DNA from: Mobula hypostoma
Taxonomy: Eukaryota
Direction of reading: 5' to 3'
Assembly (NCBI RefSeq): GCF_963921235.1
Contig: NC_086108.1
Location: 79,548,001-79,612,000, forward strand
Length of the DNA: 64,000 nt
Shown here: positions 8,430-60,130 of the stretch, one piece after another
Layout of the letters: the number at the start of each line of letters is the position of its first letter
How positions within the stretch are numbered: position 1 is the stretch's first letter
The notes under the pieces: generated by a model
What the model was told of the DNA's origin: nothing
Seen by the model: the letters and a program-made list of their open reading frames with translations, nothing else
The model's database searches: none
Program-made: the position numbers and the translations under genes

Positions 8430-8895
8430 TCAATAAAAATACCATCTAGGTAGTCTCCAGCCCCTTTGTATGAACATAGAATTATCCAACTTCCAGTAAT
8501 TCCCTCCCCCTCCCTTTCTTTATCCCTATGAACCTCTGCCCCCTCCCCCAGCTGCCTATCACCTCCCTTATGGTTCTGCCTCCTTCTACTACCCATTGTG
8601 TTTTCCCCTATTCTTTCTTCACCTTTCCTGCCCATCCCCTCCTGCTTCCCCTCCCCCACCCCTTTATCTTTCCCCTGACTGGCTTTTCACCTGGAACCTA
8701 CCAGCCTTCTCCTTCCCACCCTCCCCCCCACCTTCTTTATAGGGCCTCTGCCCCTTCCCTCTTCAGTCCTGATGAAGGGTTCCGGCCCGAAACGTTGACT
8801 GATCGTTTCCACGGATGCTGCCCGACCTGCTGAGTTCCTTCAACGTATTGTGAGTGTTGCTTTGACCCCAGCATCTGCAGTGTATTTTGTGTTTA
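8430..8895 (+). mobile_element. PLE 3' fragment (end of endonuclease, pyrimidine-rich UTR, hammerhead, tail)
   Basis: Similar to 53670-54128, ending gatgctgcccgacctgctgagttcc...cagcatctgcag. Confidence 0.75.
8764..8801 (+). ncRNA. Minimal type I hammerhead ribozyme motif
   Basis: CAGTC-CTGATGA-A-GGGT TCCG GCCC-GAAAC-GTT^GACTG, with a perfect 5-bp stem I CAGTC/GACTG. Confidence 0.8.
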
Positions 8896-14653: not shown

Positions 14654-16035
14654 AGTTCAAAGTTCATAGTAAATTTATTATTAATGTAAATAATGTCACA
14701 ACCTTGAGATTTGTTTTCTTGTGGGCAATCGCAGTATATACAGGAAACACAATAGAATTGATGAAATATCACAACGACAAATGTCCAAATACAAAAAAAG
14801 AGGGGGAAATAATAATAATAAAGCTATAAATATCTACAACATGAAATGAAGAGTGAGTCGGGTTCAGCAAGAATGATTCAGTGAAGGGGCAAGTGAAGTT
14901 ATCCCCTATGGTTCAAGAGCCTGATGGTTGGGGGGAGAATAACTGTTCCTGAATCTGCTGGTGCATTCCCTGAGGCTCCAGTAACAACTTCCTGATAGCA
15001 GCAGTGAGAAAGAGCATGGCTTGGATGATGCGGAGCCCTAGATGATGGGTGCTGTTTTCCTGCGGCACTGCTCCATGTGGATGTGCTTAGGGCGGTGAGG
15101 GCTTTATCCGTGATAAAATGGGCTGTATTCATTACTCTTTGTAGGCTTTTCCATGCAAGGGCATTGGTGCTTCCATCCCAGGCTGTGATGAAACTGGTCA
15201 ATATACTCTCCACCGCACACCTATTGAAGTTTGTCAAAGTTCTAGATGACATGCCGAATCTGCGCCAACTTCTCAGAAAGTAGAGGCGCTGTCATGCTTT
15301 CTTCATAATGGCACTTACTTGCTGGACCCAGGACAGATCCTCTGAAATGATAACACCAAGGATTTAAAAGTTGCTGACGCTCTCCACTGCTGATCACCCA
15401 ATGAAGACTGGTGCATAGACCTCCAAGTTCCTCCACCTGAAGTCAATTATCATCTCCTTGGTCTTTCTGACATTGAGCGATAGGTTGTTGTGGTACCATT
15501 CCTCCAGAGTTTCAGTCTCCCTCCAATATGCTGATACATCACCACCCTTGATATGGCCAAGGACAATGGTGTCATCAGCAAACTTAGATATGGCATTGGA
15601 GCTGTGCTTAGCCTTACAGTCATAAGTATAAAAATGAGTAGAGCAGGAGCTAAGCAGACAGCCTATGCTGAAGGAGATTGTGGAGGAGATGTTGTTGCCA
15701 ATCTGAACTGACTGAAGTCTGCAAGTGAGGAAATTGAAGATCCATTTGCAGAAGGAGGTATTGAAGCCAAGGTCTTGAAACTTAATTAGTTTTGAGGGGA
15801 TGATAGTATAAAATGCCAAGCTGTAGTCAATGAAGAGCTTCCTGATGTATGTATCTTCATTGTACAGATGTTTCAGGGTTAAGAGAAGAAGGCAATGAAT
15901 TGACATCTGCTGTTGACCTGTTGTATCAGTAGACAAACGGAAATGGATTTAAGTTGCTCTCAGGCAGGAGTTGATATGTTTCATCACTAACCTCTCAAAG
16001 TTCTTCATCACAGTGGATGTAAATGCTATTGGACA
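14654..16035 (-). mobile_element. Rex1/Babar-like LINE 3' portion
   Basis: [53 protein letters not shown]. Tail aataaatttactatgaactttgaact on the minus strand. Confidence 0.8.
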
Positions 16036-19766: not shown

Positions 19767-20563
19767 TACTATTTCTGTGTATATCTGAGCTCAGGACAGG
19801 TGCAAACATGTTGTATTTTCTTTTATTTAGTATTTACTTGTAAATAGAATAGAGATGAACAAAGTCAGTGGGCAAGGTGATAAATTGATAATAGAATCAT
19901 ATGCTTGTGTATTCATAGAGTCTGAGATTACATAGATCTTTTAGCCATTATAAAAGACAAGGAGAGTGTCTGTAAGGATATGACTGAAGGAATACTTGAA
20001 CATAGGACACTATATAGCACACTACATTCTCTTTGACCCAAAATGTGGTGCTGACCTTTTAACCTATTCTAAGGTCAATCTAACCCTGCACTCATGCAGA
20101 GGGTGCCTTCCATTTTTCTATCATTCAGGTGCCTATCCAAGCATTTCTTAAATGCCCCTAATGTGTCTGCCTCTACCACCACCTGTGCCAGGGCATTCCA
20201 TGCATTTATCACTCTCTGTGTGAAGAACTTACCTCGATGATGGCCCTGGTATTAACCGTTTCTGCCCTGGGAAAAAGTCTCTGGCTATTTTCTCGATCTA
20301 TGCCTCTTATGATCTTGAACACCTCCATCACGTCACCTTTGGAAGTACCTCTTTTTTCTGAGCGCATAATTCTAGAGGTAGTTATTAACTAATTAAATAA
20401 ATGTGCATTAGTTACTGAATACAGAAGGAAGTGATTCAGCCATGCATGCTAGTTGTAGCTTTTTGAAGTAGGAATCCCTGTTTAGTATCACATGAAGTCC
20501 TCTTTCTCATCTTTCAATATTTGGCCAGCACCCATTCAGAATTATGTTTGGATAAATATTTCA

Positions 20564-20771
20564 AAAACGCAAACAACAGGAATTCTGCAGATGCTGGAAA
20601 TTCAAGCAACACGCATCAAAGTTGCTGGTGAACGCAGCAGGCCAGGCAGCATCTCTAGGAAGAGGTACAGTCGACGTTTCAGGCTGAGACGCTTCGTCTG
20701 ATGAAGGGTCTCGGCCTGAAACGTCGACTGTACCTCTTCCTAGAGATGCTGCCTGGCCTGCTGCGTTCACC
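20564..20771. mobile_element. 208-bp hairpin mini-element derived from the PLE 3' end, 15-bp TSD
   Basis: Arms 20627-20698 and 20700-20771 are reverse complements with 3 differences in 72 nt. Flanks tggataaatatttca (20549-20563) and tggataagtatttca (20772-20786). Confidence 0.9.
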
Positions 20772-21160
20772 TGGATAAGTATTTCACTGTCTCATTTGAT
20801 GTAGACTTACAGACCCTGACAATTGTCACCGGGGGAAAAATTCCCTTCATCCCCTCCTCCTCTAAATCTGTGATCAGTGATAACTATCCAAAAGGAATAA
20901 ACTTTCTGTCTACTCTATAACCAGCTCACATCTTTCTGAAAAGGTCACATCATAACAGTCTTACAGGAAGAACAGTCGTCACCATTACAATGTTTCCTCA
21001 TTCTAGTAACATCCTGATTCACTCTTTATGTTCTTTTTCTAAGCAATTGTATCTTTCCTGGCAGCCAGAATTGTCATCTGAGGCCTGGCCTAGCAAGGTT
21101 CCAGTTTAATTTCACTTTTTATATTCTATGCTTCCTTTTGCACCAAGTAAGTCTAATAAG

Positions 21161-24402: not shown

Positions 24403-25446
24403 TTCAGAATGGCAGGCAGTGACTAGTGGGGTACCGCAAGGCTCAGTGTTGGGACCCCAGTTGTTTACAATATATATTAATGACTTAGACGAGGGAATTA
24501 AATGCAGTATCTCCAAGTTTGCAGATGACACGAAGCTGGGTGGTAGTGTTAGCTGTGAGGAGGATGCTAAGAGGATGCAGGGTGACTTGGATAGGTTAGG
24601 TGAGTGGGCAAATTCATGGCAGATGCAATTTAATATGGATAAATGTGAGGTTATCCACTTTGGTAGCAAGAACAGGAAAACAGATTATTATCTGAATGGT
24701 GGCCAATTAGGAAAAGGGGAAGTGCAATGAGACCTGGGTGTCATTGTACACCAGTCATTGAAAGTGGGCATGCAGGTACAGCAGGCGGTGAAAAAGGCGA
24801 ATGGTATGCTGGCATTCATAGCAAGAGGATTCGAGTACAGGAGCAGGGAGGTACTACTGCAGTTGTACAAGGCCTTGGTGAGACCACATCTGAAGTATTG
24901 TGTGCAGTTTTGGTCTCCTAATCTGAGGAAAGACATTCTTGCCATAGTGGGAGTACAAAGAAGGTTCACCAGATTGATTCCTGGGATGGCAGGACCTTCA
25001 TATGATGAAAGACTGGATCGACTAGGCTTATACTCTCTGGAATTTAGAAGATTGAGGGGTGATCTGATTGAAACGTATAAAATTCTAAAGGGATTGGACA
25101 GGCTAGATGCAGGAAGATTGTTCCTGATGTTGGGGAAGTCCAGAACAAGGAGTCACAGTTTGAGGATAAAGGGGAAGCCTTTTAGGACCAAGATTAGGAA
25201 AAACTTCTTCACACAGAGAGTGGTGAATCTGTGGAATTCTCTGCCACAGGAAACAGTTGAGGTCAGTTCATTGGGTATATTTAAGAGGGAGTTAGATATG
25301 GCCCTTGTGGCTAAAGGGATCGGGGGTATGGAGGGAAGGCAGGTACAGGGTTCTGAGTTGGATGATCAGCCATGATTGTACTGAATGGCGGTGCAGGCTC
25401 GAAGGGCCGAATGGCCTACTGCTGCACCTATTTTCTATGTTTATGT
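24403..25446 (+). mobile_element. Young CR1 3' fragment inserted in the left Tc1 TIR
   Basis: TSGVPQGSVLGP, KFADDTK, RGDLIETYK. Tail ttttctatgtttatgt. Confidence 0.9.
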
Positions 25447-34395: not shown

Positions 34396-35335
34396 ATGTC
34401 TCCTGAGACAGTGATGTGCCTCTCATGTGAGATGTGGCAGTCTTGGGGGAACTCCCCTCTCCCGCAGAGTCACATCTGTCAGAAGTGCATATGGCTGGGC
34501 GAGCTGGAAGACCGTGTAAGAAATCTGGAGCACACCTGGATGACCTTCGACTCATAAGGGAGAATGAGGCAGTCATAGATGAGAGCTACTGGGAGGTAGT
34601 CACACCTAGGCTGTTGGAAGCAGGTTGTTGGGTGACAGTCAGAGGGGGAAAGTGAAGGTGAGCAGACAGGTAGTGCAGAGCACCCCAGTAGCCATTCCCC
34701 TGAATAATAAGTTTACCGTCCTGGATACTGTTGGCGGGAACGACCGACCAGGTGTGAGCCAGGGTGGCAGGGCCTCCGGCACTGAGTCTGAGCCGGTGGT
34801 GCAGAAGGGTGGGACAGAGAAGAGGAGAGCTGTCGTCATTGGAGACTCTATAGTCAGGGGAGCAGACAGGAGATTTTGTGGACGTGAGAAGGACACCCGC
34901 ATGGTTTGTTGCCTCCCGGGTGCCAGGGTCCGGGATGTCTCTAACCGGGTGCACGACATCCTGGTACGAGAGGGAAAGCAACCAGAAGTCATGACACATG
35001 TTGGGACCAACGACATAGGCAGGAAGAGGGATGAGGTCCTGAAGTGTGAGTTTCGGGAACTAGGCAGAAGGCTGAAGAACAGGACCTCAAGGGTGGCGTT
35101 CTCAGGATTGTTGCCAGTGCTACGTGACAGAGATGATAAGAATTGGAGGAGATGGCAGTTGAATGCGTGGCTGAGGAGTTGGTGCAAGGGGCAGGGTTTT
35201 AGATTTTTGAATCATTGGGATCTCTTCCAGGGAAGGTGGGACCTGTACAGATTGGATGGGTTGCACTTGAACTCGAGAGGGAGCAATATCCTTGCAGGTA
35301 GGTTTTCTAGCATGGTTCGGGAGCGTTTAAACTAA
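34396..35335 (+). pseudogene. CR1 ORF1: CxxC..CxxC zinc finger + SGNH/GDSL esterase-like domain, frameshifted
   Basis: MSPETVMCLSCEMW...HICQKC, then VVIGDSIVR, LPGA, HVGTNDI and DGLHLN in ORF 34625..35335. Confidence 0.85.
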
Positions 35336-35370
35336 TTTGCAAGGGGGATGGGACCCAGACCGATAGAGCA

Positions 35371-38225
35371 GTGAAAGAAGTGCATGGAGTAAAGCCAGAT
35401 CTAACATATAGAGAGGCTTTGAGAAAAGAGAAGCAGAATAAACAGTGTAAAGACAGTAAGGTAGAAGGGCTGAAATATGTGTACCTCAATGCAAGAAGCA
35501 TCAGGAACAAAGGTGATGAACTGAGAGCTTGGATACATACATGGAATTATGATGCAGTGGCCATTACAGAGACTTGGCTGGCACCAGGGCAGGAATGGAT
35601 TCTCAATATTCCTGGATTTCAGTGCTTTAAAAGGGATAGAGAGGGTGGAAAAAGGAGAGGAGGGGTGGCATTACTGGTCAGGAATACTATTGCAGCTACA
35701 GGAAGGGTGGGTAATGTAGCAGGATCCTCTTTTGAGTCAGTATGGGTGGAAGTCAGGAACAGGAAGGGAGCAGTTACTCTATTGGGTGTATTCTATAGGC
35801 CCCCTGGTAGCAGCAGAGATACAGAGGAGCAGATTGGGAGGCATATTTTGGAAAGGTTCAAAAATAACAGGGTTGTTATCATGGGTGACTTTAACTTCCC
35901 TAATATTGATTGGCACATGATTAGTTCCAAGGGTTTAGATGGGGCAGAGTTTGTTAAGTGTGTCCAGGACAGATTCCTGTCACGGTATGTGGACAGGCCG
36001 ACTAGGGGGAATGCCATACTAGATCTAGTACTAGGTAATGAACCGGGTCAGGTCACAGATCTCTCAGTGGGTGAGCATCTGGGGAACAATGACCACCGCT
36101 CCCTGGCCTTTAGCATTATCATGGAAAAGGATAGAATCAGAGAGGACAGGAAAATGTTTAATTGGGGAAGGGCAAGTTATGAGGCTATAAGGCTAGAACT
36201 TGCGGGTGTGAATTGGGATGATGTTTTTGCAGGGAAATGTACTATGGACATGTGGTCAATGTTTAGAGATCTCTTGCAGGATGTTAGGGATAAATGTGTC
36301 CCGGTGAGGAAGATAAAGAATGGTAGGGTGAAGGAACCATGGGTGACAAGTGAGGTGGAAAATCTAGTCAGGTAGAAGAAGGCAGCATACATGAGGTTTA
36401 GGAAGCAGGGATCAGATGGGTCTATTGAGGAATATAGGGAAGCAAGAAAGGAGCTTAAGAAGGGGCTGAGAAGAGCAAGAAGGGGGCATGAGAAAGCCTT
36501 GGTGAGTAGGGTAAAGGAAAACCTCAAGGCATTCTTCAACTATGTGAAGAAAAAAAGGATGACAGGAGTGAAGGTAGGACCGATTAGAGATAAAGGTGGG
36601 AAGATGTGCCTGGAGGCTGTGGAAGTGAGCGAGGTCCTCAATGAATACTTCTCTTCGGTATTCACCAATGAGAGGGAACTTGATGATGGTGAGGACAGTA
36701 TGAGTGAGTTTGATGTTCTGGAGCATGCTGATATTAAGGGAGTGGAGGTGTTGGAGTTGTTAAAATACATTAGGACAGATAAGTCCCCGGGGCCTGACGG
36801 AATATTCCCCAGGCTGCTCCACGAGGCGAGGGAAGAGATTGCTGAGCCTCTGGCTAGGATCTTTATGTCCTCGTTGTCCACAGAAATGGTACCGGAGGAT
36901 TGGAGGGAGGCGAATGTTGTCCCCTTGTTCAAAAAAGGTAGTAGGGATAGTCCGGGTAATTATAGACCAGTGAGCCTTACGTCTGTGGTGGGAAAGCTGT
37001 TGGAAAAGATTCTTAGAGACTGGATCTCTGGGCATTTAGAGAATCATGATCTGATCAGGGACAGTCGGCATGGCTTTGTGAAGGGCAGATCGTGTCTAAC
37101 AAGCCTGATAGAGTTCTTTGAGGAGGTGACCAGGCATATAGATGAGGGTAGTGCAGTGGATGTGATCTATATGGATTTTAATAAGGCATTTGACAAGCTT
37201 CCACACAGCAGGCTTATTCAGAAAGTCAGAAGGCAAGGGATCCAGGAAGTTTCTCCAGGTGGATTCAGAATTGGCTTGCCTGCAGAAGGCAGAGGGTCGT
37301 GGTGGAGGGAGTACATTCAGATTGGAGGATTGTGACTAGTGGTGTCCGACAAGGATCTGTTCTGGGACCTCTACTTTTCGTGATTTTTATTAATGACCTG
37401 GATGTGGGGGTAGAAGGGTGGGTTGGCAAGTTTGCAGACAACACAAAGGTTGGTGTTGTAGATAGCGTAGAGGATTGTTGAAGATTGCAGAGAGACATTG
37501 ATAGGATGCAGAATTGGGCTGAGAAGTGGCAGATGGAGTTCAACCCGGAGAAGTGTGAGGTGGTACACTTTGGAAGGACAAACACCAAGGCAGAGTACGA
37601 AGTAAATGGCAGGATATTTGGTTGTGTGGAGGAGCAGAGGGATCTGGGGGTACATGTCCACAGATCCCTGAAAGTTGCCTCACAGGTGGATAGGGTAGTT
37701 GAGAAAGCTTATGGGGTGTTAGCTTTCATAAGTCGAAGGATAGAGTTTAAGAGTCGCGATGTAATGATGCAGCTCTATAAAACTCTGGTTAGGCCACACT
37801 TGGAGTACTGTGTCCAGTTCTGGTCACCTCACTATAGGAAGGATGTGGAAGCATTGGAAAAGGTACAGAGGAGATTTACCAGGATGCTGCCTGGTTTAGA
37901 GAGTTTGCATTATGGTCAGAGATTAAGGGAGCTAGGGCTTTGCTCTTTGGAGAGAAGGAGGATGAGAGGAGACATGATAGAGGTGTTCAAGATAAGAAGA
38001 GGAATAGATAGAGTGGATAGCCAGCGCCTCTTCCCCAGGGCACCACTGCTCAATACAAGAGGACATGGCTTTAAGGTAAGGGGTGGGAAGTTCAAGGGGG
38101 ATATTAGAGGAAGGTTTTTTACTCAGAGAGTGGTTGGTGCGTGGAATGCACTGCCTGAGTCAGTGGTGGAGGCAGATACACTAGTGAAGTTTAAGACTAC
38201 TAGACAGGTACATGGAGGAATTTAA
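35371..38225 (+). pseudogene. CR1 ORF2 (APE + RT) with stops and frameshifts
   Basis: YLNARSI, AITETWL, GGGVAL, YRPP, MGDFNFP, LDLV, NDH, KSPGPDG, NYRPVSLTS, QGSVLGP, FADN (from FADD). Stops at 36373-36375 and 37479-37481, frameshift near 37250. Confidence 0.9.
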
Positions 38226-39153: not shown

Positions 39154-42100
39154 CTACCCAACTGATACTTCACCCCGACATCCATGAAGCCTACAGCTAC
39201 ATCTCCACCTCTCTTCCCTTTAGAAGTCCTTGAAGATGGTACAGCCAAGTTCCTCACCATATTTTGTGGAAAACTCAAACTTTGAATCTTTGCAGGCTGC
39301 AAGGAGCCAACTCTGCCTCAAAACCTCCCTTTAAAAAAAGAAAAGGATTAGCTTTATTTCTCACATGTACATTGAAACATCGAAAGTGAAATGCATCCTT
39401 TGCGTCAAATTAAATCAGCAAGGATTGTGCTGGGCAGCGTACAAATATCGCTGTGCTTCCAGCCCGCAACACACTAACCCTAACCATATGTCTTTGGAGT
39501 GTGGGATACAGGACACCCAGAGGAAACCCACGTGGTCACAGGGAGAATGTGCAAACTCCTTTCAGTCAGCTGTGGGAATCAAATCCCGATCGGTGATCAC
39601 TGCCACCATAAAGCTATTGCGCTAATCGCTACACTGCCGTGCCATACTTGACTGGTCTGCAGTCTTTAAATTGTTGGAGTGCTGGATGAACTGAAATTCC
39701 CTTCAGGTGAGAAATGAGTAGATTGATACATTGTTCTCAGTAACTGCCATGAGCTCCATTCCCTTGGCGCATCCCTGTCCTTGGCTGCTAACTGAAATTG
39801 AACCAGAGTGTTCACAGCCTTAGTCCCGGAAGATTTTAAAACCACAGGTCTGTGCCATTGCAAACACAGTCTGCTTCTGCTCTGAATTATTTCCCGATGA
39901 GTTGTAATCTATTCTAGCCCCCAAATCCCTGGCAATTTAATCCCCTTAAATCTAGGTTCTTTATCATTCCTAAATTAAATCGTTTTACCATTGATGACTA
40001 TATTTTTAACTATCAGCTCTCCTCAATCAAAGAGAGTACTAGAAATTCTCAGCAGCTTGCCCTGCATGGGAAGAGAAACAGATTTGATGTTTCTGATTGA
40101 AGACCTGAACTAGGAAGGAGAGAAAGGAAGCTGAGTAAACTGCAAGAAAGGTCAGGAAGGGGGGTGGTGGGGGGTGGTGTGGGTTGTTGGGGAACAGATT
40201 ATTGTTTTCTTTTTTCTCTCTAGCGATGGAGAACACCTACCAGGCATGTCTTCCTGCTCTACATTTCACAACTCCTGCGTTCTTTGTCTCTCTGCTTTTG
40301 CGTGTGCTCTCACTCACTATCCACTCCCATTAACTCATTTTCTGGTGAAGCCCAGCGACTACTTATTGGCAGCAAACGAAACAAAGTATACAACTAAATA
40401 CTTCATTATTTACATCTTTCTGGTAAAATTTATGGTAAGCAATCCCTGCGAACAGTGGAGAGGCAAGGCTAAGTCGAGGGTCAAAGCACTCAGGTGTGAA
40501 GTGAGCTGGAGGCAAAACGTGGCAGCAGGGTCCGAGCCCAGACCATAACAATGCAGTAGGACCCAGGTCCCAGAGCAAGAAATGACCTGATGTTTGGATG
40601 ATTCAAATGCTGGGCCAGATGCATTGAAAGGGAGAGTGATGGGAACAAAGGCAAGCATCAGGCCAGTTCTGTTTGCTGCTCAGCCCTTTGCTAAGCTAAG
40701 GCTGTGGCCTGCTTTGGCCACTCTCAGCTTCACGCCTGTGGGCTCCGCGACATTTACTCGGCTCTGCGCTGAGCTGAGGCTGCGGCTGTGGCCTGCTCTG
40801 GGATTTGTGTACGTGGACTCACTTTCATTCTGAATATTATTTGCTTGCTTTTATGGTTTGCATGAATTTTTTTCTCTTTCTCTCTGCGCATTGAGTGTTT
40901 GACTGTCTTTCTTTGAAATTTTTTTTGGCGTTTCTTTGTTTCGTGGCTGCCTGTAAAGAGACGAGTCTCAGGGTTGTATAACGTGCACATACTTTGATAA
41001 TAAATGTACTTTGAAGTTTTGAATTTTGTTTTACAGCTTTTACCCCATTCACCCCTGTTTTACGCTATTAGGGATATCCTGCCACGCTGCATTCTCTTTT
41101 CCCTTCTTCCCAAGTCTCAGGAAGGGTCTTCAACCTGAAACGTTAACTGTTTCTCTTCCCACAGGTGCGCCTCAACCTGCTGAGCATTTACAGTATTTTG
41201 TCTGTTTTATTTTGCATTACATTTTCAACTACTTTGGGTTTTCTGCCTTCCTCAATATTTGTCCTCATAGCTCCCTCCATCTCTTTTCTGTCTACTAGAA
41301 TAGTATTATTATCTGGCTTTTTGACTTGGTGAGAAGTTTTGTTTGATTTAGTTCCTGTGAGATACATTTTACTAAACTTGTTATGTGATTGGCACTATAT
41401 AAATACATTGCCAATATTGGTGTTGCTAGCCAAAAAGTTTTAATCTCACTACTTTTGACAACACTCACCCTGCAAATGCAGATATTAAACCAATGGGAAA
41501 AATGGTACAGCTAACTATGTATAGAATTAATTTGTTAAATTCCAGTGCAGAGGTACAAAGATGACTAAGGCTGTAGAATAAATTAATTATCCATCTGTTT
41601 CTGTGATTACTTTGTAACTTGAAGGAGAAGATAACTATTTGGAGTATTATCACGAATATAGCTTGCTTATAAGTTCCAACTAATTAAAAGTTGTACTTCC
41701 TGGTAAGGGCATTCTTTTCCTTGATTGCAAAACCCACCTTAGAAGTGACACAATTTCACTTGAGTACAGTACAGCAGCCAGCTGTGGATGCCAGAAGAAC
41801 AGAGTTAAAATTGTAGTTTAATAATCTCTTATCAGTCTAGGATTAGCATCCATAATGTGCACAAGGGTGAAATGGAAATCTGAGATAAGGTACCACTCTT
41901 TGGAATGGATGAATCAGAAATACGAATATGTGGAGTTGGCCCTTCCTCCTCTCCGCCCACTAAAGAATTATGGGAAGTTTGATCAACGAGATGCATGTTC
42001 CATTCTAATTGGGAGAGAAATTTGTTTCTGCTTTAGAACATAGAACATAGAATAGTACAGCATAGTACAGGCCCTTCAGCCAACAATGTTGTGCCGACCC

Positions 42101-43652: not shown

Positions 43653-45126
43653 TGTTAGGATGTTATTCACCTGTGTGTGCCAAAAAAAAAGGATAAGAAT
43701 AGTTAATCTTGGTTCACGTTAAACCCTATAGCTGGAGAGAGAAAATAAAGGGTTTCCAGACGATGAGTTGAATACAGATTTGAATCAGATCCCAATGATG
43801 AAAGAACACAGGGCTAATCAATAATGACATCCAGTCCCCTTGACTCTACAGCAATTTTGTTTTCCGTTTTTACTTAAATCATGCATGGGATCAGTTGCTG
43901 AATACTCAGGTGGCCAGTCTCTCTGTGTGAGTTTAAATACTGAGCGCTGGCAGATTGCATAACTGTGAAGGAATGATAGATGAACCAGTTCTCTACTTGC
44001 CAAACAGAGCATTAGCTTTGGCTGGAGAGAAAACAGAAGTAGCAACAATAACTGTTTATCCTCAGCCACCACCCTCATGTCCTAACACAGGACTAACATT
44101 TCAGCTCAGTCTTCATGAGTTCAGGTCATTGACCTAACAATAACTTAGCTTCTCCCTTCTCAGTTTGTTTTCCTTTGACTTAACTTTGCTGAGACCAGAA
44201 TCTCAACCACATACAAAGAGAGGAGCAAAGATTTGAAATTAATGACAGGACCTAACTTTTTTTTCCTCACTTGCTGACTGGCAGTACAAACAGGTCAGGA
44301 AACCGGCTGAAAGGTGGAGAGGAAGGCCTCCAGTACCATGCTCCAGCTCAGAGCACAGCAGACAGTAGGAAAGTATAAATACAAGATGCTGGAAATCTAG
44401 AGCACTGCACACAGCGTGCTGGAGGAGCTCAGCAGATCAGGCAACATCTATGGATAGGAATAAACAGTCGAAGTTTCAGTCCGAGACCCTTCATCAGAAA
44501 GCTTTGAAGTGGAGAGCAGAATGGACAGGTGGAGGAAGAGCACATGCTGGAAGAGGGACCAAGGAAAGATGGATGAGTGGGATTTGGAGAGATTGAGGGA
44601 GTGAAGAGCTATGGTTGTCCGTATGGTGTACGTAAAAATTAATAGATGAGGGTTCTGCAGAAATTGTGGAGTTTCATTTGCTGTGCTGTATTGAGCATGA
44701 TTTGATTAGGGGCATCTGATCACAAAGAAGGGGCTATGATTGTGCTTGGGGTGTATGTAATTGTTGGGGTTCACTGGTTAGCATAGCTAGAGTTACATTC
44801 ATGAGAATAGTGAGTTTAGATGGAGGGAGAACATCTAATGGATACTGACTGAGTAGGAAAATGGCCAGGGGAGAACTTCTGTTCTTCCTAGCCTTAAGCA
44901 ATGTTAGGCACTTGCTGGTTCCCACTGCCTGTCAGCTACCAGCTTTTCTATACCCAGCAAAGCTGACTACTGTACAGCGCTTAAATGCAAAACAGAGCTG
45001 CTGGTAGTTAAAATCAGAAATGGGAATGCTGGCACGAGGAAATCTGCAGATGCTGGAAATTCAAGCAACGCACATCAAAGTTGCTGGTGAACGCAGCAGG
45101 CCAGGCAGCATCTCTAGGAAGAGGTA

Positions 45127-45165
45127 CGGTCGACGTTTCGGGACGAGACCCTTCATCAGGACTAA
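45127..45165 (-). ncRNA. Minimal type I hammerhead ribozyme motif in PLE 3' fragment (~45034-45180)
   Basis: Minus strand TTAGTC-CTGATGA-AGGGTCTCGTCCC-GAAAC-GTC^GACCG. Confidence 0.75.
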
Positions 45166-45625
45166 CTGAAAGAAGAGCTAGGATAAGAGATAGGATAAGA
45201 AGAACTGGGGTAAGATTTGTCATTTTTGAGTTTTGAACAGTGAGTCCCCATTCCCAAGGTGCTCAGAAACAAGCATTTTAATCTTAATTTCAGATGGACA
45301 TGTATATTGTTTAATAAATGATAAATATTTAGGGAGATGGCAGTCTGTGTTGTGTTCGTGTGGAAATACCTGAAGCAAAATTACCTGAAATATAAAACAG
45401 TTTCAGAGGTTTTGTGTGAACATCGGTCTCTATCTGAGGCTAAACTTGCTCAACGCTGTATGAAACCTCCTTCTGCTTTATTGTTCTGTGAAACTAGGAA
45501 AGCCAATGAATGACTGGTTTGCCATTGTTGTCATGGTGGGCTAACATTTTAGCTGTTTTACAAACCCTTGTAGTTACATGCAGGAGATAATATTGAGTGA
45601 AGTGAGGGACTTGGGACAAGTTTGA

Positions 45626-46493: not shown

Positions 46494-47478
46494 GTTCAAA
46501 GTTCAAAGTAAATTTATTATCAAAGTACATACATCTCACCATATACAACCCTGAGATTCATTTTCTTGTGGGCATTTGCAGTAAATACAAAGAAACACAA
46601 AAGAATCAATGAAAAACTACACACAACAAAGACGGACAAACAACCAGTGTGCAAGAGACAACAAGCCATGCAAATAAAAAAGAGAAAAATAATTCAACAA
46701 ACACGTAAACAAACGAACAATTGATATTGAGAACACAAGTTGTAGAGTTATTGAAAGTGAGTCAATTGGTTGTGGAATAAGTTCAGTGTTGGGTGATTGA
46801 AGTTATCCTTTCTAGTTCAAGGGCCGAGTGGTTCAGGGGAAATAACTGTTGCTGAACCTGGTGGTGTGGGACCTGGGGCTCCTGTACCTCCTTCCTGATG
46901 GCAGCAGCAAGAAGAGAGCATGACCCAGATGGTGGGGGTCCTTGATGATGGACGCTGGTTTCCTGCAACAGCACTCCTTGTACATGTGCTTAATGGTGGG
47001 GAAGGCCTCACCCGTGATGAACTGGCTGTGTCCAGAACTTTTTGTAGGCTTTTCTGTTCAAGGGCATTGGTGTTTTTATACCAGGCTGTGATGAAACTAA
47101 TCAGACTACTCTCCACCATGCAGCCATAGAAGTTATGCAAAGTTTTAGATGACATGCCGAATCTTTGCAAACTTCTAAGAAAGTAGAGGTGCTGCCGTGT
47201 CTTCTTGGTAATAGCACATACATACTGGCCCCAGGACAAATCCTCTGAAATAATAACACTGAGGAATTTAAAGTTGCCAACCCTCTCCATCTGTAATCCT
47301 CTGATGAGAACTGGCTCATGGACCTCTGGATTCCTCCTCTTGTAGCCAATGATCAGCTCTTTAGTCTTGCTGGCGGTGATTGGGAGATTGTTGATGAGGC
47401 ACCATTCAGCCAGATTTTCAATCTCTGTCCTGTATGCTGTTTCGGCGAAGAACAGTGGGGTCATCAACAAACTTAAAC
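46494..47478 (-). mobile_element. Rex1/Babar-like LINE 3' portion (shorter copies at ~7745-8310 -, ~11300-11810 +, ~12735-13050 -, ~54685-55020 -)
   Basis: ORF 46817..47470 LAEWCLINNL...KTKELII...FKFL...HLYFLR...ITAWY. Same tail as the 14654 copy. Confidence 0.8.
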
Positions 47479-49457
47479 TTAAAGTTAAATTTATATGAAT
47501 GCTATTGAGACTTTTAAAAGTATCTTTCTTGTTTTTTTAAAGGGATTGTTGAGATTGGTTTAATCACATAGTAAAGAAACCCTGCAACATTTAAATGTTC
47601 ACAAATATCTCAATATTCGCTACTATTTAATATGTATTTTGTATACAACTATTATTTCTATCTTTATAAATAATAATGGAAGGATCCTGCTTGGCCCATC
47701 AAATCTATACTACCTCTCAGAGGACTGCTTCCCAATTCTCTGCAGCTTCCCTGTAAACCATTCTCTCTCAGTTGCCTGTCGACTGTGATTCTCCTGCTAC
47801 CCACGGGTGTTGGAGGCAATTCACGGCATCCAGTTAGCCGACCATCCTACGTGCCTTTGGGACGCAGGATGAAACTGGAGCACCAGAGAACCCCATACAT
47901 TCACAGGGAGAACAGGCAAACAGCACCAGAGGCCAGGATTGACCCTGCTGTGTTGTTGGAGTTGTGCCCAAGCAGCTCCGGCTGCTGCATCACCATGGTG
48001 ACAGTAACCTGTCACTGACTGTGACCACCTGAGGTGTTTGCTGCCTGTGAAGATGAGGCAGCAGTAAACACCATCCCTCCTCACCGAAGTGGAATGCATT
48101 TCAAAATTCTCACTGATTTTCTTTAGCCACTTTATCGTTCTAACGCTGTTAGTCCTCCTACTATCCTATGCAAGCCAGCTTCACAGCACAGCAGTCATCA
48201 GCACAAGAAATTTTACAGATGCTGGAAATCCATTGTAAATGTTGGAGGAACTTAGCAGGTCAGGCAGTATCAATGGAGAGGAATAAACAGTCAACGTTTT
48301 GGGCCAAACTCTTCACCAGTGCACCTGTGCTTGCAGACAGTGGAGAACAAGTTCTTCTCTCGTCTCTTGCTTCAGGATTACAATGGAGTAACAGCTGCGC
48401 ATTTGAATCGCCTCACATAATATCAAGAAATGGCTGAGAAAACTCAGCAGTAAAGGCCCAGCTGTAGTATTAGAGACCCGTGCTCCAGAAACTGCCGTGT
48501 CTCTGGCCAAACTGTTGCAGTGTGGCTACAGTGCTGGTAATTACCCAACCATGTGGAAAATTGCCCAGGTATTTTCTGTTCACGCAAAAAAAAATGCAGG
48601 GCAATCCCTTCTGGCCAATTACTGCCCAGTCGGTCCACTGTCAATCCTCAGCAAAGTGATTCAAGGAGTCATGGATAGTTTCAGATTCAGGTTTTTAATC
48701 ACATGTACCTCAATGCATACTGTTGAATATGCTGGTTGCGTTGACAACCAGCACATCCAAGGATGCGTGGGGGCAGCCCACAAGTGTACACACTCAGAAT
48801 AGCATCAGAGTAGCATGTCAACAATGTCCTACAGGGCAACAAACAGTTCTGTCAAGCCACTGTTGTTTCCCAGCAATGGCTCACCGTTGCTCAGTTTGGG
48901 TTTTGCCTGTACCCTTCAGTTCCTGGCCTTAGCCCAGCCTTCATGCATGCAGGGACCAAATATAAATTCCAGAGGTGCAATGAGACTTGACTGTCCTAGA
49001 TAACAAGGTAGCATTTGACATCATGATGACCTTATAAAATCAGTGAGCAGGTATCAAAAGACAAACACTTCATAGCCTGTTTAATGGACGTAGTTGTGGC
49101 TGTTGGTGATCAATCATCCCAGCCCCAGGACATCAGTGCAGCAGTTCCCTGACTCAATGTCCTAGGTACAACCATTGTCAGCTGCTCATTCAATGACATG
49201 CTTTCTATTACAAGGTCCATAATTGCATAGTGTTCAATGCTATTTGCATTTTCCTTCGTAAGTGAAGCAACCAGTTCCTGCACGAAGCAAAATAGCAATC
49301 ACCTCTCTATAATTGAAAGGAGTGATGTGGGTTATTTGAATCTTTATCATGGAAAGACCCTACATCTACCAATGGTATGTTTAAAATATTCAGGTAGGCC
49401 TGACAGAGTTCTACTCTGGTGAGTTTTCTTTCTGGTCAGGTGCTATGATAATCATAA

Positions 49458-49646
<189 letters not shown>

Positions 49647-50931
49647 TAAGGGGGAGGGGGTCTTCTCGTTTCTTCAGCCTGTTTGCTCCAGTTGGTTTGT
49701 CACCAACTTCCACATATAACCACTGGAGGGAGCACTTATGCAAAAGCTTTGCTTTTGTAGACAGATGGTTGACGAACACCAGTTCTGTAATTCTGATATT
49801 GGATGCCTTGCTGTTTTGAATCCCGTTTGCTTTTGATTAGAATCAAATATTAAGATGGTCCCAAATATATCCACAGTCAGTGTGCATTCTGCCATCCAGA
49901 AATCCAATTCATGGCAGTTGGGAATTTCAATTTAGTTAATTAAAATGTTTTAATTATTGAAGCAACCCCATCAAAACATGTTTTTGGTTGTAGTGCACTA
50001 CTAACATGTGGGGAAGCAGATTGTTGTGGAAAGTGTGATATTCAATTCTGTTGTTCAGTTCTATTTGCACTTCATTGGAAAATGCAGCAGCCCATATCTG
50101 CCTGCAGTAAGATCTAGGCAACTTGCAGACGTGGGATATTACATAGCAGATAAGATTTATGCTTTGGCAATGACACTGCCAATAAGGGAGAGTCTAATCA
50201 CATACCCTTAGTATTTACCCGCATCCCTATCACTCAGTATCATTAAAAGCCTGATCAGTAACGTCAATACCACAGCTAAAAGAACAGCTCAGAGGCTGGG
50301 GTTTCTACGCTGGGTAGCTCACTGTCTGAGTCCCAAAGGCCTTTTCACCATCTGCAGGGTACAAATAAGGAGCCTGACGGAACACTTCCTAACCAGGGGA
50401 GATGGCGGCAATTCTAGAAGAGCTGCTGCCCCTCAATCCTGACCTTCGTTACTCTCTGAGTAGAGAATGCACATTCTCCCTCTGACAAAGTGCTTTGGTT
50501 TCCTCTCAACATCCCAAAGCTGTGCAATTGAGTGGTGAGTTTTCTGCTGCAAATAAGAGGTAGAATGATTCAGGTCAGGGAGATGGATGTGGAGAAAATA
50601 AAGCGGAATTTGTCTAGGATCAAGAGAATGCAGGTGCTGGAATATGGAGCAAATAACAAGCTGCTAGAGGAATAGTGTAAATGGGCTTTGATGGCTAGTG
50701 TGATCTGTAGGCCTTGTTTTATGCTGCTTGGCTCCAAGAGTTCAACATGTCTCTTAAATGGTACGCCATCTGCAATCAGTTTTGCTCCTTCCGTAACCAG
50801 CACATACCATGGTTGTAATTCCTACCCTGCAGAATGGAAACAGGAATTCTGCAGATGCTGGAAATTCAAGCAACACACATCAAAGTTGCTGATGAACGCA
50901 GCAGGTCAGGCAGCATCTGTAGGAAGAGGTG

Positions 50932-50969
50932 CAGTCGACGTTTTAGGCCGAGACCCTTCGTCAGGACTA
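50932..50969 (-). ncRNA. Hammerhead motif in the inverted arm, GAAA core mutated to AAAA
   Basis: Minus strand TAGTC-CTGACGA-AGGGTCTCGGCCT-AAAAC-GTC-GACTG. Position 50944 is t where other copies have c. Confidence 0.7.
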
Positions 50970-51693
50970 ACTGAAGGAAGAGTGAGTAAGGGATTTGAAA
51001 GTTGGAGGGGGAGGGGGAGATCCAAAATGATAGGAGAAGACAGGAGGGGGAGGGATAGAGCCAAGAGCTGGACAGGTGATAGGCAAAAGGGGATACGAGA
51101 GGATCATGGGACAGGAGGTCCGGGAAGAAAGACAAGGGGTGGGGGGGAGGACCCAGAGGATGGGCAAGAGGTATATTCAGAGGGACAGAGGGAGAAAAAG
51201 GAGAGTGAGAGAAAGAATGTGTGCATAAAAATAAGTAACAGATGGGGTACGAGGGGGAGGTGGGGCCTTAGCGGAAGTTAGAGAAGTCGATGTTCATACC
51301 ATCAGGTTGGAGGCTACCCAGACGGAATATAAGGTGTTGTTCCTCCAACCTGAATGTGGCTTCATCTTTACAGTAGAGGAGGCCATGGATAGACATGTCA
51401 GAATGGGAATGGGATGTGGAATTAAAATGTGTGGCCACTGGGAGATCCTGCTTTCTCTGGCGGACAGAGCGTAGATGTTCAGCAAAGCGGTCTCCCAGTC
51501 TGCGTCGGGTCTCGCCAATATATAAAAGGCCGCATCAGGAGCACCGGATGCAGTATATCACCCCAGTCGACTCACAGGTGAAGTGTTGCCTCACCTGGAA
51601 GGACTGTTTGGGGCCCTGAATGTTGGTAAGGGAGGAAATGAAAGGGCATGTGTAGCACTTGTTCCGCTTACATGGATAAGTGCCAGGAGGGGA

Positions 51694-53733
51694 GCCTACT
51701 TCTTCGGCAAGGACTCTTCCACGCCCACCGATGACCCCTTCTCCCGTCTTCAACCCTCCTCTTCTTCATGGACACCCCGCTCTGGTCATCTGCCTGCTCT
51801 GGATCTCTTTATCGCTAATTGCCGACGGGACATCAACTGTCTCGACTTCACTGCACCTTGTCCCCATTCCAACCTCACTCCTTCGGAACGCTCTGCTCTC
51901 CACTCCCTCCGCACTAATCCTAACCTTATTATTAAACCCGCCGATAAGGGGGGTGCTGTTGTAGTCTGGCGTACTGACCTCTACCTTGCCGAGGCACAGC
52001 GACAACTCGCGGATACCTCCTCTTATTTACCCCTCGATCGTGACTCCACTAAGGAGCACCAGGCCATTTGTCTCCCACACCATCACCGACTTTATCCGCT
52101 CAGGGGATCTCCCATCCACTGCCACCAACCTTATAGTTCCAACACCCCGCACTTCCCGTTTCTACCTCCTACCCAAGATCCACAAACCTGCCTGTCCTGG
52201 CCGACCTATTGTCTCAGCTTGCTCCTGCCCCACCGAACTTGTTTCTGCATACCTCGACACAGTTTTATCACCCCTTGTTCAATCCCTTCCTACCTATGTT
52301 CGTGACACTTCTCACGCTCTTAAACTTTTCGATGATTTTAAGTTCCCTGGCCCCCACCGCTTTATTTTCACCATGGATGTCCAGTCCTTATATACTTCCA
52401 TCCCCCATCAGGAAGGTCTCAAAGCTCTACGCTTCTTTTTGGATTCCAGACCTAATCAGTTCCCCTCTACCACCACTCTGCTCCGTCTAGCGGAATTAGT
52501 CCTTACTCTTAATAATTTCTCCTTCGGCTCCTCCCACTTCCTCCAAACTAAAGGTGTAGCTATGGGCACCCGTATGGGTCCTAGCTATGCCTGCCTTTTT
52601 GTTGGGTTTGTGGAACAATCTATGTTCCGTGCCTATTCTGGTATCTGTCCCCCACTTTTCCTTCGCTACATCGACGACTGCATTGGCGCTGCTTCCTGCA
52701 CGCATGCAGAACTCGTTGACTTTATTAACTTTGCCTCCAACTTTCACCCTGCCCTCAAGTTTACCTGGTCTATTTCTGACACCTCCCTCCCCTTTCTAGA
52801 TCTTTCTGTCTCTGTCTCTGGAGACAGCTTATCCACTGATGTCTACTATAAGCCTACTGACTCTCACAGCTATCTGGACTATTCCTCTTCTCACCCTGTC
52901 TCTTGCAAAAACGCCATCCCCTTCTCGCAATTCCTCCGTCTCCGCCGCATCTGCTCTCAGGATGAGGCTTTTCATTCTAGGACGAGGGAGATGTCTTCCT
53001 TTTTTAAAGAAAGGGGCTTCCCTTCCTCCACTATCAACTCTGCTCTTAAACGCATCTCCCCCATTTCACGTACATCTGCTCTCACTCCATCCTCCCGCCA
53101 CCCCACTAGGAATAGGGTTCCCCTGGTCCTCACCTACCACCCCACCAGCCTCCGGGTCCAACATATTATTCTCCGTAACTTCCGCCACCTCCAACGGGAT
53201 CCCACCACTAAGCACATCTTTCCCTCCCCCTCTCTCTCTGCATTCCGCAGGGATCGCTCCCTACGCAACTCCCTTGTCCATTCGTCCCCCCATCCCTCCC
53301 CACTGATCTCCCTCCTGGCACTTATCCGTGTAAGTGGAACAAGTGCTACACATGCCCTTACACTTCCTCCCTTACCACCATTCAGGGCCCCAAACAGTCC
53401 TTCCAGGTGAGGCAACACTTCACCTGTGAGTCGACTGGGGTGACATACTGCGTCCGGTGCTCCCGATGTGGCCTTTTATATATTGGCGAGACCCAACGCA
53501 GACTGGGAGACCGCTTTGCTGAGCATCTACGCTCTGTCCGCCAGAGAAAGCAGGATCTCCCAGTGGCCACACATTTTAATTCCACATCCCATTCCCATTC
53601 TGACATGTCTATCCACGGCCTCCTCTACTGTAAAGATGAAGCCACACTCAGGTTGGAGGAACAACACCTTATATTCCGTCTGGGCAGCCTCCAACCTGAT
53701 GGCATGAACATTGACTTCTCTAACTTCCGCTAA
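51694..53733 (+). pseudogene. PLE ORF: reverse transcriptase + Cys linker + GIY-YIG endonuclease, two frameshifts
   Basis: Motifs IKPADKGGAVV, YLLPKIHK, GRPIVS, MDVQSLYTSIP, GVAMGTRMGPSYA, RYIDD, PFLD, YYKPT. Linker C-x4-C-x2-C (PCKWNKCYTC). Endonuclease VTYCVRCSRC..YIGET.R...RFAEH, ending GMN. Frameshifts near 52067 and ~53295 split it over ORFs 51583.., 51986.. and 53407..53733. Confidence 0.92.
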
Positions 53734-54029
53734 GGCCCCACCTCCCCCTCGTACCCCATCTGTTACTTATTTTTATGCACACATTCTTTCTCTCACTCTC
53801 CTTTTTCTCCCTCTGTCCCTCTGAATATACCCCTTGCCCATCCTCTGGGTCAACCCCCCACTCCTTGTCTTTCTTCCCGGACCTCCTGTCCCATGATCCT
53901 CTCGTATCCCTTTTGCCTATCACCTGTCCAGCTCTTGGCTCTATCCCTCCCCCTCCTGTCTTCTCCTATCATTTTGGATCTCCCCCTCCCCCTCCAACTT
54001 TCAAATCCCTTACTCACTCTTCCTTCAGT

Positions 54030-54067
54030 TAGTTCTGACGAAGGGTCTCGGCCTGAAACGTCGACTG
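54030..54067 (+). ncRNA. Minimal type I hammerhead ribozyme motif in the PLE 3' region
   Basis: TAGTT-CTGACGA-AGGGTCTCGGCCT-GAAAC-GTC^GACTG: core CUGANGA and GAAA, stem II hairpin, GUC triplet (predicted cut after 54062), stem I AGTT/GACT, stem III reduced to palindromic ACGT. Confidence 0.8.
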
Positions 54068-55167
54068 CACCTCTTCCTACAGATGCTGCCTGGCCTGCTG
54101 CGTTCACCAGCAACTTTGATGTGTGTTGCCTGCAGAATGGAGGTCATTCTGTCAGCATCTCCTAAACTGGTGATCTCTATTGCTAAATAGACTGGATGGA
54201 TGGAAATGCTGCCAGCGTACGGTCCCCTCCAAGTTACGAACCTGAGTAAGAAGTTCACTGCTGTTCCTTTATCATCACTGGGTTAAACTAATGAAACACG
54301 CCACCCGTAATGAGAAGACTGCAGTAATTCAAGCTGGTCATCAAGTGCCGCCTCCTTACCAGCAATGGCTATAGTCCATAAGTAAATGAAAATCATGTGA
54401 GGTTCCAACCAGCAGACTTTTTATAGTCACCCATATACTTCTTTTAGTTTATTAGTTAACGTGATGTTACTGATTAACTGTGGAATCTGTATCAGTATTG
54501 GTAATATGGGTAAGGATGATAAAGGAGTCTGTAAGTACGCCAAGACAAAGCTGTGTGCAAACTGCACAATTACCATGCAAATAAACAAGTTTCTAGCAGT
54601 GTAATTATTTGTAGTTTGTTTGAAAATACAGCACCCCTCTACAAATAGTTTAGTTTATAATCACAGAAGTTAAAGAAAGTTTTGTTCAAAGTAAATTAAT
54701 TATCCAAGTACATACTTGCCACCATATGCACCCCGGAGAATCATTTTCTTACGCGCATTCACAATAGAGACATGATAGCATGAATGAAAAACAGCACACA
54801 ACAAGATGGACAAACAACCCCATGTGCAAAACACAAACTGTGCAAGTACAAAAAAAATAATAAATAAACAATAAATATTGGGAACATGAGATGAATTGTC
54901 CTTGAAAGTGAGTCCATAGCTTGAGGGAACAGTTCAGTGTTAGGGTGAGTGAAGTTATCCCTTCTGGATCAAGAGCCTGATTAGGGGAATAACTGTTCCT
55001 GAACTTGGTGGTGTGAGTCCACGTGGTATATTAAAACTTTCAATCCCAGATCTTACTGTAAGGACATTGTTTATTGAATATAGAATTGTGGTGAGATATT
55101 GCCCATGCTTAATTCATAAAACCAATGGAAAGTGTATGGATTTTTTAACATACCATAATAAACATGA

Positions 55168-58146: not shown

Positions 58147-59884
58147 TAGTCGGTGCAAACAAGAAGGAACTTTGATGTTCATGCTACTTAATCTTTTCGA
58201 TGAAATGGTGATGTGAAAGCATGGTGTCTATGGTTTGCCATTCAATAAATTTCAGTTAGCCAGTGGTACACTAGGGTTGTAAGGGAGCAAGTCCTTTGGC
58301 TGTGCTGCTTGCTGCTTGGGAAGAACAAAAATTAAAAGTAGCGGTTAGCACGGCGCAATTACAGCATGGGGCATTCCGGAGTTTGGAGTTAAATTCTGAT
58401 GCCATTCTGTAAGGAGTGTCTGTACATCCTCCCTGTGGAATACGTGGGTTTTCTCCAGGTCCTCAGGTTTCCTCCTACAGTCCAATGATTAGGTTCGGGT
58501 TAATCAGGTCTGCCAGCGGTTGCTGGGGCAGTGTGGCTTGTGGGGCTGGAAAAGCCTACTCCACGCCGTAATGGCTAAATAAAATAACTGCTTTTCTGAG
58601 AGAGGGGAGTCATTCTGCTGAGCTTAATCTGAGCATGCAAAATCCCATGCCAGCTTTGCAGCAAAATGTTGCTGATGTATCTTTAAAATATTTTCCAAAA
58701 ATTCTAATTGGGATATGAAATCTGCAATTTTCTAGACCACAATGCTTGTTTATTCATACTGTAAGTGTGATTTGTATTTTCAAAAAATCTTCATGTATTG
58801 TCCTGAAGAAAGATCTTGGGCCGAGAAATCAAGTATTTACTCTTTTCAGTAGATACTGCCTGGCCTACTGAGTTCCTCCAGCATTTTTGTTGCTTAGGAT
58901 TTCCAGCATCTGCAGATTTTCTTCTGTTCATATATTTAAAGATGTTTTTCTTTAATTGTGCTTTATTGATATATTGTATGCTCAATATGGTAAGTATAAT
59001 ATTTTGTATATTATTAAAATCCTTCCTGATTTAATAAAATATGCAGAACTACAGTTCAAATCATGTCACGTTTTCTGGATTAAAGAGAATTCCCTAGGTC
59101 TTGCTTTATAGGGAGTTAGTCGTGGGTAGAAATGACCTTTTATTGATTCTGCTTTATCGGACAACTGCGTTGCTGCTGGTAGATGAGAGACATCTGAATG
59201 GTGCACCAAGTAGGAGAGGCTCTTGTTCATAAGTTCATACATAACGCACAGGATGATTGTATGAACGTCCAGTCTTCTGTACAACAGGACTGAAATATGA
59301 TGGTACTAACATGTTAGATTGTTAAAATAAAATCAAATTTCAGCAGTCTAAAGGCACTCAGTGTTTATTGTCCTCAGAGTTATAGACACAAGAGATTCTT
59401 GTAGATGCTGGAAATCTGGGATAAGGCAGACAAAATGCTGGAGGAACTCAGCAGTTCAGGCAGCACCCATGGAAAGGAATAAAGAGTCGATGTTTCAGAC
59501 CTAGATCCTTCATTAAGACGCTGTCCTCATTACTAATTGCGTTAACGTTCCATAGTGTTCTCAGTGCACTGAGATTCACTGTAATACATGTTCACTAGTT
59601 GCCATTTTAAGTGCAGATATATTTGCCCATACATATCATTAATAACCACAGTGCATTCTAACTATTTAAAAATGAATTAATGGGGACATATATTACTGAT
59701 TTTGTAAGTAGTGATTATTTAAATTCATTCTTAGCATTCATAGGATTTATTCTAGATTTTTCCCTATCCACCCTGCCTTTGACTTTGCGACTACATAGAT
59801 AACCTTCAAGTATTAACAATTTTTATTCTAATACTAAGTTCTGTAAGGTAGAATGGCTTGCTGAAAATAAGGGAAAAGACTTCA

Positions 59885-60130
59885 AAGATATGAAATAAAA
59901 ATGGAAGATGCTGGAAGCTCTCAGCAGGTTAGGCAACATTAGTGGAAAGAGAAACAAGGTTATTATTTCAAGTCCAAGACCCTCTAACTGAGGAAAAGAA
60001 AAGAGGTTTAAGTATATCTCAGTTATCTCCCTTTCTCAGTTCAGATGAAGGGTCTCTTATTTGGAACGTTAAATGTTTCTCTCTCCACAGATGCTGCCTG
60101 ATCTGCTGAGTGTTTCCAGAATTCGCTTAC
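59885..60130. mobile_element. Old PLE-tail hairpin element
   Basis: ctcagcaggttaggcaacattagtggaaagagaaaca versus tgtttctctctccacagatgctgcctgatctgctgag. Decayed core cagatgaagggtc...ggaacgtt. Confidence 0.65.

Follow-up and report, generated by a model that had tools for sequence, protein, structure and literature searches.

We describe a two-armed insertion of a Penelope-like element (PLE) at positions 50826–54141 of a 64,000-nucleotide (nt) stretch of Mobula hypostoma contig NC_086108.1, which is referred to here as the window and to which all positions belong. The unit comprises two 5'-truncated copies of a Neptune-type element, placed head to head and enclosed by one target-site duplication (TSD). 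The mechanism that most likely formed it is separate priming of reverse transcription from both target strands, followed by end-joining of the two cDNAs. A preliminary description of this DNA had already proposed priming from both strands; it is the best reading of the data, and we put its probability at about 0.7. Three things are directly visible in the locus: a single TSD, two outward-pointing 3' ends that lie 32 nt apart in the element's tail, and a head-to-head junction.

Structure and apparent empty site of the insertion

The unit is delimited by an exact 13-bp direct repeat, CCTGCAGAATGGA, with its left copy at 50826–50838 and its right copy at 54129–54141 (plus strand). Next to the left TSD copy lies an inverted, 5'-truncated second copy of 853 nt (50839–51691, minus strand), which includes the linker, the endonuclease (EN), the 3' untranslated region, a hammerhead motif and the tail, and which has a stop codon at 51535–51537 in its EN part. 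It faces the main copy, also 5'-truncated, of 2437 nt (51692–54128, plus strand), the 3' untranslated or pseudo-long terminal repeat (pLTR) region of which occupies 53734–54128. When the arms were aligned by blastn (50871–51691, minus strand, with 53310–54128, plus strand), they were 96.8% alike over 821 columns, with 24 substitutions (20 transitions and 4 transversions, 8 of them at CpG sites) and 2 indel columns; a 25th difference of the alignment, at 54130, falls within the TSD. Compared with the right end, the left arm reaches 32 nt deeper into the 3' tail of the element. This one-sided tail (50839–50870, minus strand) forms the outer end of the inverted arm, is absent from the right end, and continues as in the window copy at 20575–20698. 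The preliminary description had given a 13-bp duplication around the whole unit, an inverted copy of the element's own 3' end of about 855 bp with about 97% identity and mostly transitions, and outer ends about 30 nt apart in the tail, all of which agree with the values measured here.

The inner junction of the two copies (51691|51692) can be read as blunt or as a 3-nt overlap (GAG) plus one additional G, and it shows no palindrome. The family continuation of the left arm past this junction appears as a loose end among contigs. No duplicated word longer than 3 nt was seen by eye around the left arm alone, and neither a direct-repeat search nor blastn found a direct upstream pLTR for the main copy.

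Contigs from sequencing runs were compared over positions 49800–53300, and a junction was counted as bridged when a contig extended at least 31 nt beyond it. In the left-flank search, a second organism, B, which is a close relative, held 60% of the sampled words. The 3298-nt contigs of organism B (runs X7 and X8, one sample) match 49800–50838 with 15 and 14 differences per 1039 positions, depart at exactly 50838, the last base of the left TSD copy, and then run for 738 letters off the stretch. They leave the stretch as an empty site would, and this apparent empty site would make the 738 letters the right flank. Thus, of the orthologous empty site foreseen in the preliminary description, the left flank was followed to the final TSD base and the join to the right flank is presumed. 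A contig of organism D ends at 50456, short of the insertion site. The insertion is probably younger than the split from organism B, for which the flank divergence is about 1.4–1.6%; the copy is fairly recent, as had been proposed. Because a single TSD surrounds both arms, they arrived in one insertion event, a claim of the preliminary description with which the empty-site signature in organism B also agrees.

Probable priming from both target strands and alternative origins

If both target strands served as primers, the process would have begun with the GIY-YIG endonuclease of an active source element nicking them 13 nt apart, as the TSD suggests, and leaving two 3' ends. Each 3' end would then have primed reverse transcription on element RNA, the two starts showing an offset of 32 nt within the 3' tail. 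One cDNA ran for 2437 nt and the other for 853 nt, both ending prematurely. Head-to-head joining of the cDNA ends, which used little or no microhomology, and filling of the gaps would have completed the insertion. The two cDNAs may have been copied from different RNA molecules. The event would have followed the split from organism B, and the copy would have decayed since. In vitro, the protein of a Poseidon PLE cuts and extends both target strands, starts reverse transcription at two sites bracketing the tail, and is predicted to form a dimer (PMC11167929).

Several points weigh against this reading. The in vitro priming work concerns a Poseidon element, not a Neptune one (PMC11167929), and self-priming on an antisense template has been favoured for inverted PLE ends (PMC3846280). 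The ends of a related two-armed unit at 20.6 kb lie 63 nt apart rather than about 30, and the positions of the start sites are thus not constant from copy to copy. We infer, rather than see, that the run-on of the organism B contigs is the right flank. Finally, none of the contigs listed bridges the inner junction at 51691|51692, a lack of coverage that by itself proves nothing.

The unseen inner junction would also fit an inversion created by an assembly or fold-back read artefact, and such structures are known to trouble assemblies (PMC8557442). However, an artefact should yield identical arms, and the actual arms differ at 24 sites, 20 of them transitions; nor does it explain the exact TSD. 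In addition, a contig from run X1, which may be the source sample, extends beyond the unique flank and covers 27 nt of the inverted tail, showing 0 differences; this reach is under the 31-nt bridging rule. We therefore regard an artefact as extremely improbable.

The model of Arkhipova et al. (2013) envisages one priming event, followed by a self-priming fold-back or a template jump onto antisense element RNA. It was argued from palindromes at inverted junctions (PMC3846280), and two short units in the window, at 20.6 kb and 3.3 kb, do turn almost symmetrically at the hammerhead core. In the unit at 50826–54141, however, the two points brought together at the junction are separated by 1.6 kb within the element, with no palindrome and an overlap of at most 3 nt. 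Since the left arm holds 32 tail nucleotides that are missing from the right end, it was not copied by fold-back from the right-hand cDNA; a fold-back on the cDNA itself cannot provide these nucleotides. With a jump to antisense RNA, the end would have to fall in the tail by coincidence, a region in which many family copies do terminate (loose ends at 50842). The antisense self-priming model suits the short symmetric units of the window better than the present one, for which we consider it unlikely.

The two cDNAs possibly came from different RNA molecules. Differences affect 24 of 819 positions between the arms (2.9%), compared with 15 of 1039 between the orthologous flanks (1.4%; Fisher p 0.033), and such an excess would fit two source RNAs. 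Three further comparisons gave no such signal. Without CpG changes the arms differ at 16 of ~761 positions and the excess is not significant (Fisher p 0.36); synonymous differences between the arms (7/16) are not significantly enriched (p 0.05–0.20); and among 10 ray-like proteins, none showed a linked subfamily haplotype corresponding to the left arm. Greater divergence between the arms than between the flanks of the two species is also what two source copies would produce had two separate insertions, or a later recombination, brought the arms together. Yet one TSD bounds both arms, the left arm by itself has, by eye, no flanking duplication longer than 3 nt, and the same layout recurs at 20549–20786, all of which makes such an origin very improbable.

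The target site resembles the element's tail. The target word at 54130–54138 (CTGCAGAAT) is identical to 9 nt of the tail (50846–50854, minus strand), whereas 108 of 57,262 background 13-mers match the tail by 9 nt; recognisable decayed tails had been masked from this background, so that the p-values derived from it are too small. The bottom-strand primer could pair with tail positions 16–25 through 9 Watson-Crick pairs and 1 wobble, compared with 4 pairs (one of them a wobble) at the real junction. The target also contains a 7-bp inverted repeat, spanning 54133–54151 (54133–54139 and 54145–54151), which places the top-strand nick in its loop; between 0.6 and 0.7% of background sites fold or pair equally well. 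Two of five junctions match the tail by at least 7 nt (nominal p 5e-4), and the neighbourhood of the second TSD-bounded unit is in the top 2% for tail likeness, with a window size chosen after the match had been seen. The tail-match and hairpin observations are all post hoc and concern few sites.

These likenesses raise the possibility that the right end was primed by base pairing, with the target 3' end annealed to 9–10 tail nucleotides and 15 tail nucleotides skipped at initiation or later deleted, a scenario that could be combined with double priming. The pairing at positions 16–25 and the rarity of a shared 9-nt word would fit it, as would the copy at 45 kb, in which the 7 nt directly beyond the 3' junction recur in the tail. 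However, without a TSD at that junction these 7 nt cannot be shown to be target, matches at the left junction and at the two 20.6-kb junctions do not exceed 4 nt, and reverse transcription has been found to initiate on RNA at positions that lack homology to the cleaved DNA (PMC11167929). Given the post hoc choice and the masked background, base-pairing priming appears quite unlikely. A wider, speculative idea, to which we give slightly less credence still, is that the tail is a target-capture element: a 3' overhang would anneal to a word in the RNA tail, or the EN would prefer tail-like or hairpin DNA; the reverse transcriptase (RT) would start slightly upstream by looping out RNA; and a second subunit would prime the other strand on a different RNA. 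According to earlier work cited in PMC11167929, EN recognition depends on the tail, which also permits nicking within the pLTR of the element itself. Since a role for the tail is thus already on record, even a true tail-target bias would extend known biology. A metagenome scan for further junctions gave 0 matches with 26 nt; 118 matches were obtained with 17 nt, the best of which reach only 25–33 nt, and all were taken as chance.

Coding content, hammerhead motifs and family placement

The main copy encodes an RT, a CX4CxxC linker and a GIY-YIG endonuclease in a frame split into open reading frame (ORF) pieces of 124, 404 and 147 amino acids (aa), with no internal stops. Piece 1 (51694–52065, plus strand, as are all features of this frame) begins mid-protein, as judged from tblastn and the homolog alignment, and carries a DKG motif at 51943–51951. 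It is followed by a first frameshift in a T run (52066–52069), where tblastn changes frame and family contigs are one letter different at 52067. Piece 2 (52070–53281) contains the RT core, with TMDV and YIDD motifs (the latter at 52667–52678), and the thumb. A second frameshift, in a C run (53282–53289), was located by tblastn and again coincides with a one-letter difference in family contigs, at 53285. Piece 3 (53290–53733) consists of 147 aa and a stop, and includes the linker at 53329–53355 and a CCHH-type GIY-YIG endonuclease. The domain order and the two frameshifts reported in the preliminary description were thus borne out. Lying in homopolymer runs, the frameshifts may be due to slippage or to assembly errors.

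The Pfam match to RVT_1 on piece 2 (E 9e-6) is below the gathering score and that to GIY-YIG on piece 3 (E 1.3e-4) is at it; a further profile match relates the EN to an intron-associated GIY-YIG endonuclease (E 0.0095). The EN keeps the C, C, H and H residues plus R, E and N, and its GIY box is GVTY in the main copy, with GVIY at this place in the left arm. A structure model of the RT piece (pLDDT 92) adopts an RT fold. Its highest listed query TM-scores are to telomerases (0.58, 0.55, 0.54 and 0.54), while by E-value group II and retron RTs outrank telomerases in the same comparison. A single-sequence search of the PDB returned 0 matches.

The preliminary description had called the copy near-intact, which it is not. 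In a set of 120 long homologs, length statistics were taken from the 42 that are shorter than 1000 aa and align within the copy's first 10 residues. Their median length is 904 aa, and a median of 227 residues lies upstream of the point at which the copy starts. An N-terminal (K/R)GLx(F/Y) motif, found in 108 of the 120 homologs, is absent from the main copy, and pLTR frames gave no match to the N-termini of the 120. Because about a quarter of the RT-EN protein is gone, two frameshifts interrupt the remainder, and the left hammerhead core is mutated, the copy is neither near-intact nor autonomous, a verdict with which the missing upstream direct pLTR agrees. The main copy is a dead, 5'-truncated product, unable to mobilise itself.

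A minimal type-I hammerhead motif lies in each arm, as had been claimed for both ends, with only the right one retaining an intact core. The right motif (54030–54067, plus strand) has a predicted cut after 54062 and consists of CUGACGA, an extra A, a 4-bp stem II with two G-U pairs, GAAA and GUC. In the left motif (50932–50969, minus strand), the core is broken by an A in place of G12 at 50944, which changes the conserved GAAA box to AAAA. Since the two motifs lie on opposite strands, they cannot form a dimer within one transcript. An Rfam scan of the window found no hammerhead; its 3 matches were chance microRNA-like hits on a palindrome at 20.7 kb and one weak snoRNA. The monomers fold no better than shuffled sequences (z 0.57 and -0.15). 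They resemble the minimal metazoan PLE hammerheads of PMC4209133 in being type I, in the extra nucleotide after A9 and in a palindromic minimal helix III; they differ in having G-U, in both arms, at the usually conserved pair G10.1-C11.1, and in the loss of G12 from the left motif. Minimal hammerheads are known from fish Neptune elements and as opposite-strand pairs (PMC4209133), and the hammerhead is dispensable for insertion in vitro (PMC11167929).

At the level of motifs, the element fits a Neptune-type PLE, as the preliminary description had suggested. DKG, TMDV, YIDD, a C-terminal CCHH GIY-YIG endonuclease, a hammerhead-bearing pLTR, a 32-nt tail, inverted repeats and a TSD are all PLE features. 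The linker, CKWNKCYTC, falls within the CX2-5CxxC pattern common to Neptune, Nematis and Naiad and absent in Poseidon (PMC8557442). The spacer between CxxC and the first C of CCHH is 23 aa long in the main copy; in Fig. S2 of PMC8557442, counting by eye gave 25–27 aa for Neptune rows and 7 aa for those of Nematis. By eye, too, the C-terminus resembles the Neptune and not the Nematis rows of that figure, and in Fig. S1 the rows DreriNep1 and XtropNep4 look similar to the ray element across RT3-RT4. The use of spacer length together with a GLN-type C-terminus is our own reading of Fig. S2 and not a definition given by that paper, in which Neptune is paraphyletic. Poseidon was excluded by the linker. 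Naiad/Chlamys (N-terminal EN, DKA or DK, IFD) was set aside, as the EN is C-terminal, the motif is DKG and there is no RT3-RT4 insertion; so was Hydra (no CCHH, CxCX5C linker, DKT), as CCHH and DKG are present and the linker is CX4CxxC.

The best protein matches are Mobula hypostoma gene models (P0001, P0005 and P0082; 90–96% aa identity), followed by models from Hypanus sabinus (P0003, 85%) and Chiloscyllium punctatum (P0002, 72%). These ray and shark models belong to the same family and are fragments or exonised pieces. We found no paper on a ray PLE family in the literature; Dfam and Repbase were outside this search. Ray and shark gene models annotated as chitinase-domain, DIPK1C, mucin-2 and RTP3-like (P0005, P0013, P0122, P0127) contain pieces of the element, which we read as probable exonisation or annotation error. 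Entries P0007–P0031, assembly proteins together with coral and echinoderm entries (Oculina, Anneissia), show 53–59% identity to the ray RT across some 85% of the query, which is high conservation across phyla.

Related repeats and comparison with published PLE insertions

The two closest hammerhead repeats in the window, at 20.6 kb and 45.1 kb, are 91–94% alike to the copy at 50826–54141 and share the variants GTACC and TAGAG, compared with GCACC and TACAG in the main copy. The remaining ones are mostly 69–85% alike to it. The earlier suggestion that the copy represents the autonomous family behind the window's short hammerhead repeats was thus overstated: they are not straightforward products of this copy's family, the closest two carrying variants that it lacks.

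The repeat at 20.6 kb is a second two-armed unit, of a sister subfamily (20549–20786), with a 15-bp TSD containing 1 mismatch. It turns at the hammerhead core, its ends lie at tail positions +43 and -20, and its left flank (20525–20548) looks like a decayed tail. The repeat at 45.1 kb (45018–45190, minus strand) is a short copy belonging to that sister subfamily. The 7 nt that follow its 3' end are present in the tail too, and no TSD was found. An older fold-back unit at 3268–3478, with arms about 80% alike, turns just upstream of the hammerhead core and likewise yielded no TSD. For 7 of the 9 window units tested, a TSD of at least 12 nt was not found. Older PLE fragments cluster on both strands at 9235–9860 and 10115–10611, with EN-coding remnants of about 35–48% aa identity to homologs. 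Decayed hammerhead-bearing PLE ends lie at 8765–8880, 41115–41182, 44343–44497, 48175–48319, 58800–58937, 59395–59519, 60038–60111 and 991–1068; the one at 8.8 kb keeps a full hammerhead core, with GUU at the cut site.

Two other groups of repeats were observed in the window. At 34610–38222 there are four long stop-free plus-strand frames (241–354 aa), with related fragments at 24731–25372 and 4637–5248; by eye, these frames resemble a broken CR1-type long interspersed nuclear element. A second repeat family is present at 14655–15533 and 46494–47439 (71% alike), with a 239-aa minus-strand frame at 46820–47536 and a further piece at 54852–55013.

The unit at 50826–54141 follows an already published pattern of PLE insertion, in which the inverted arm, the TSD and the one-sided tail are the norm. 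PLEs typically carry, at their 5' end, an inverted copy that is itself 5'-truncated, together with a tail of 30–40 bp on one side only (PMC8557442), and two-armed units with a 31-bp tail have been described within TSDs of 9–10 bp (PMC3846280). Among the latter, Pen2a_Av and the scaffold-304 Pen2 of Adineta vaga share with the ray unit the inverted 5' copy, a TSD around the whole unit (about 9–10 bp there) and a tail, of 31 bp, on one inverted end. In those Pen2 units, however, the inverted part is a pLTR of about 180–220 bp beside a direct pLTR, often with a palindrome, whereas the ray unit is Neptune-type, has no direct 5' pLTR and no palindrome, and its 853-nt arm includes the whole EN. The scheme in Fig. 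2 of Craig et al. 2021 (PMC8557442) shows the same 5'-truncated body, adjoining inverted 5'-truncated copy and one-sided tail, as well as a hammerhead in the pLTR and, for Neptune and Nematis, a C-terminal EN with a CX2-5CxxC linker. The ray copy differs from it in having no partial tandem and in its target, which is not a microsatellite; the same paper ties the linker to a microsatellite bias in Neptune. PAc, the Poseidon element of Anolis carolinensis (PMC11167929), is alike in that both strands are cut and extended and two RT start sites bracket the tail. It has no linker finger, prefers ATT in AT-rich DNA and initiates without homology to the target, whereas the ray element carries the linker and its target shares 9 nt with the tail.

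As a single locus, one dead copy in a published pattern carries little weight. Its value lies in being a clean record of PLE integration: the TSD is exact, the arms are unequal, the tail is confined to the inverted one, and a close relative has what appears to be the empty site. The origin of inverted PLE ends is unsettled between antisense self-priming and priming from both strands, and this copy favours the latter. The family is very abundant, with 311,564 contig records in one sequencing run, which is enough for a genome-wide census of how inverted ends originate and of the match between tail and target.

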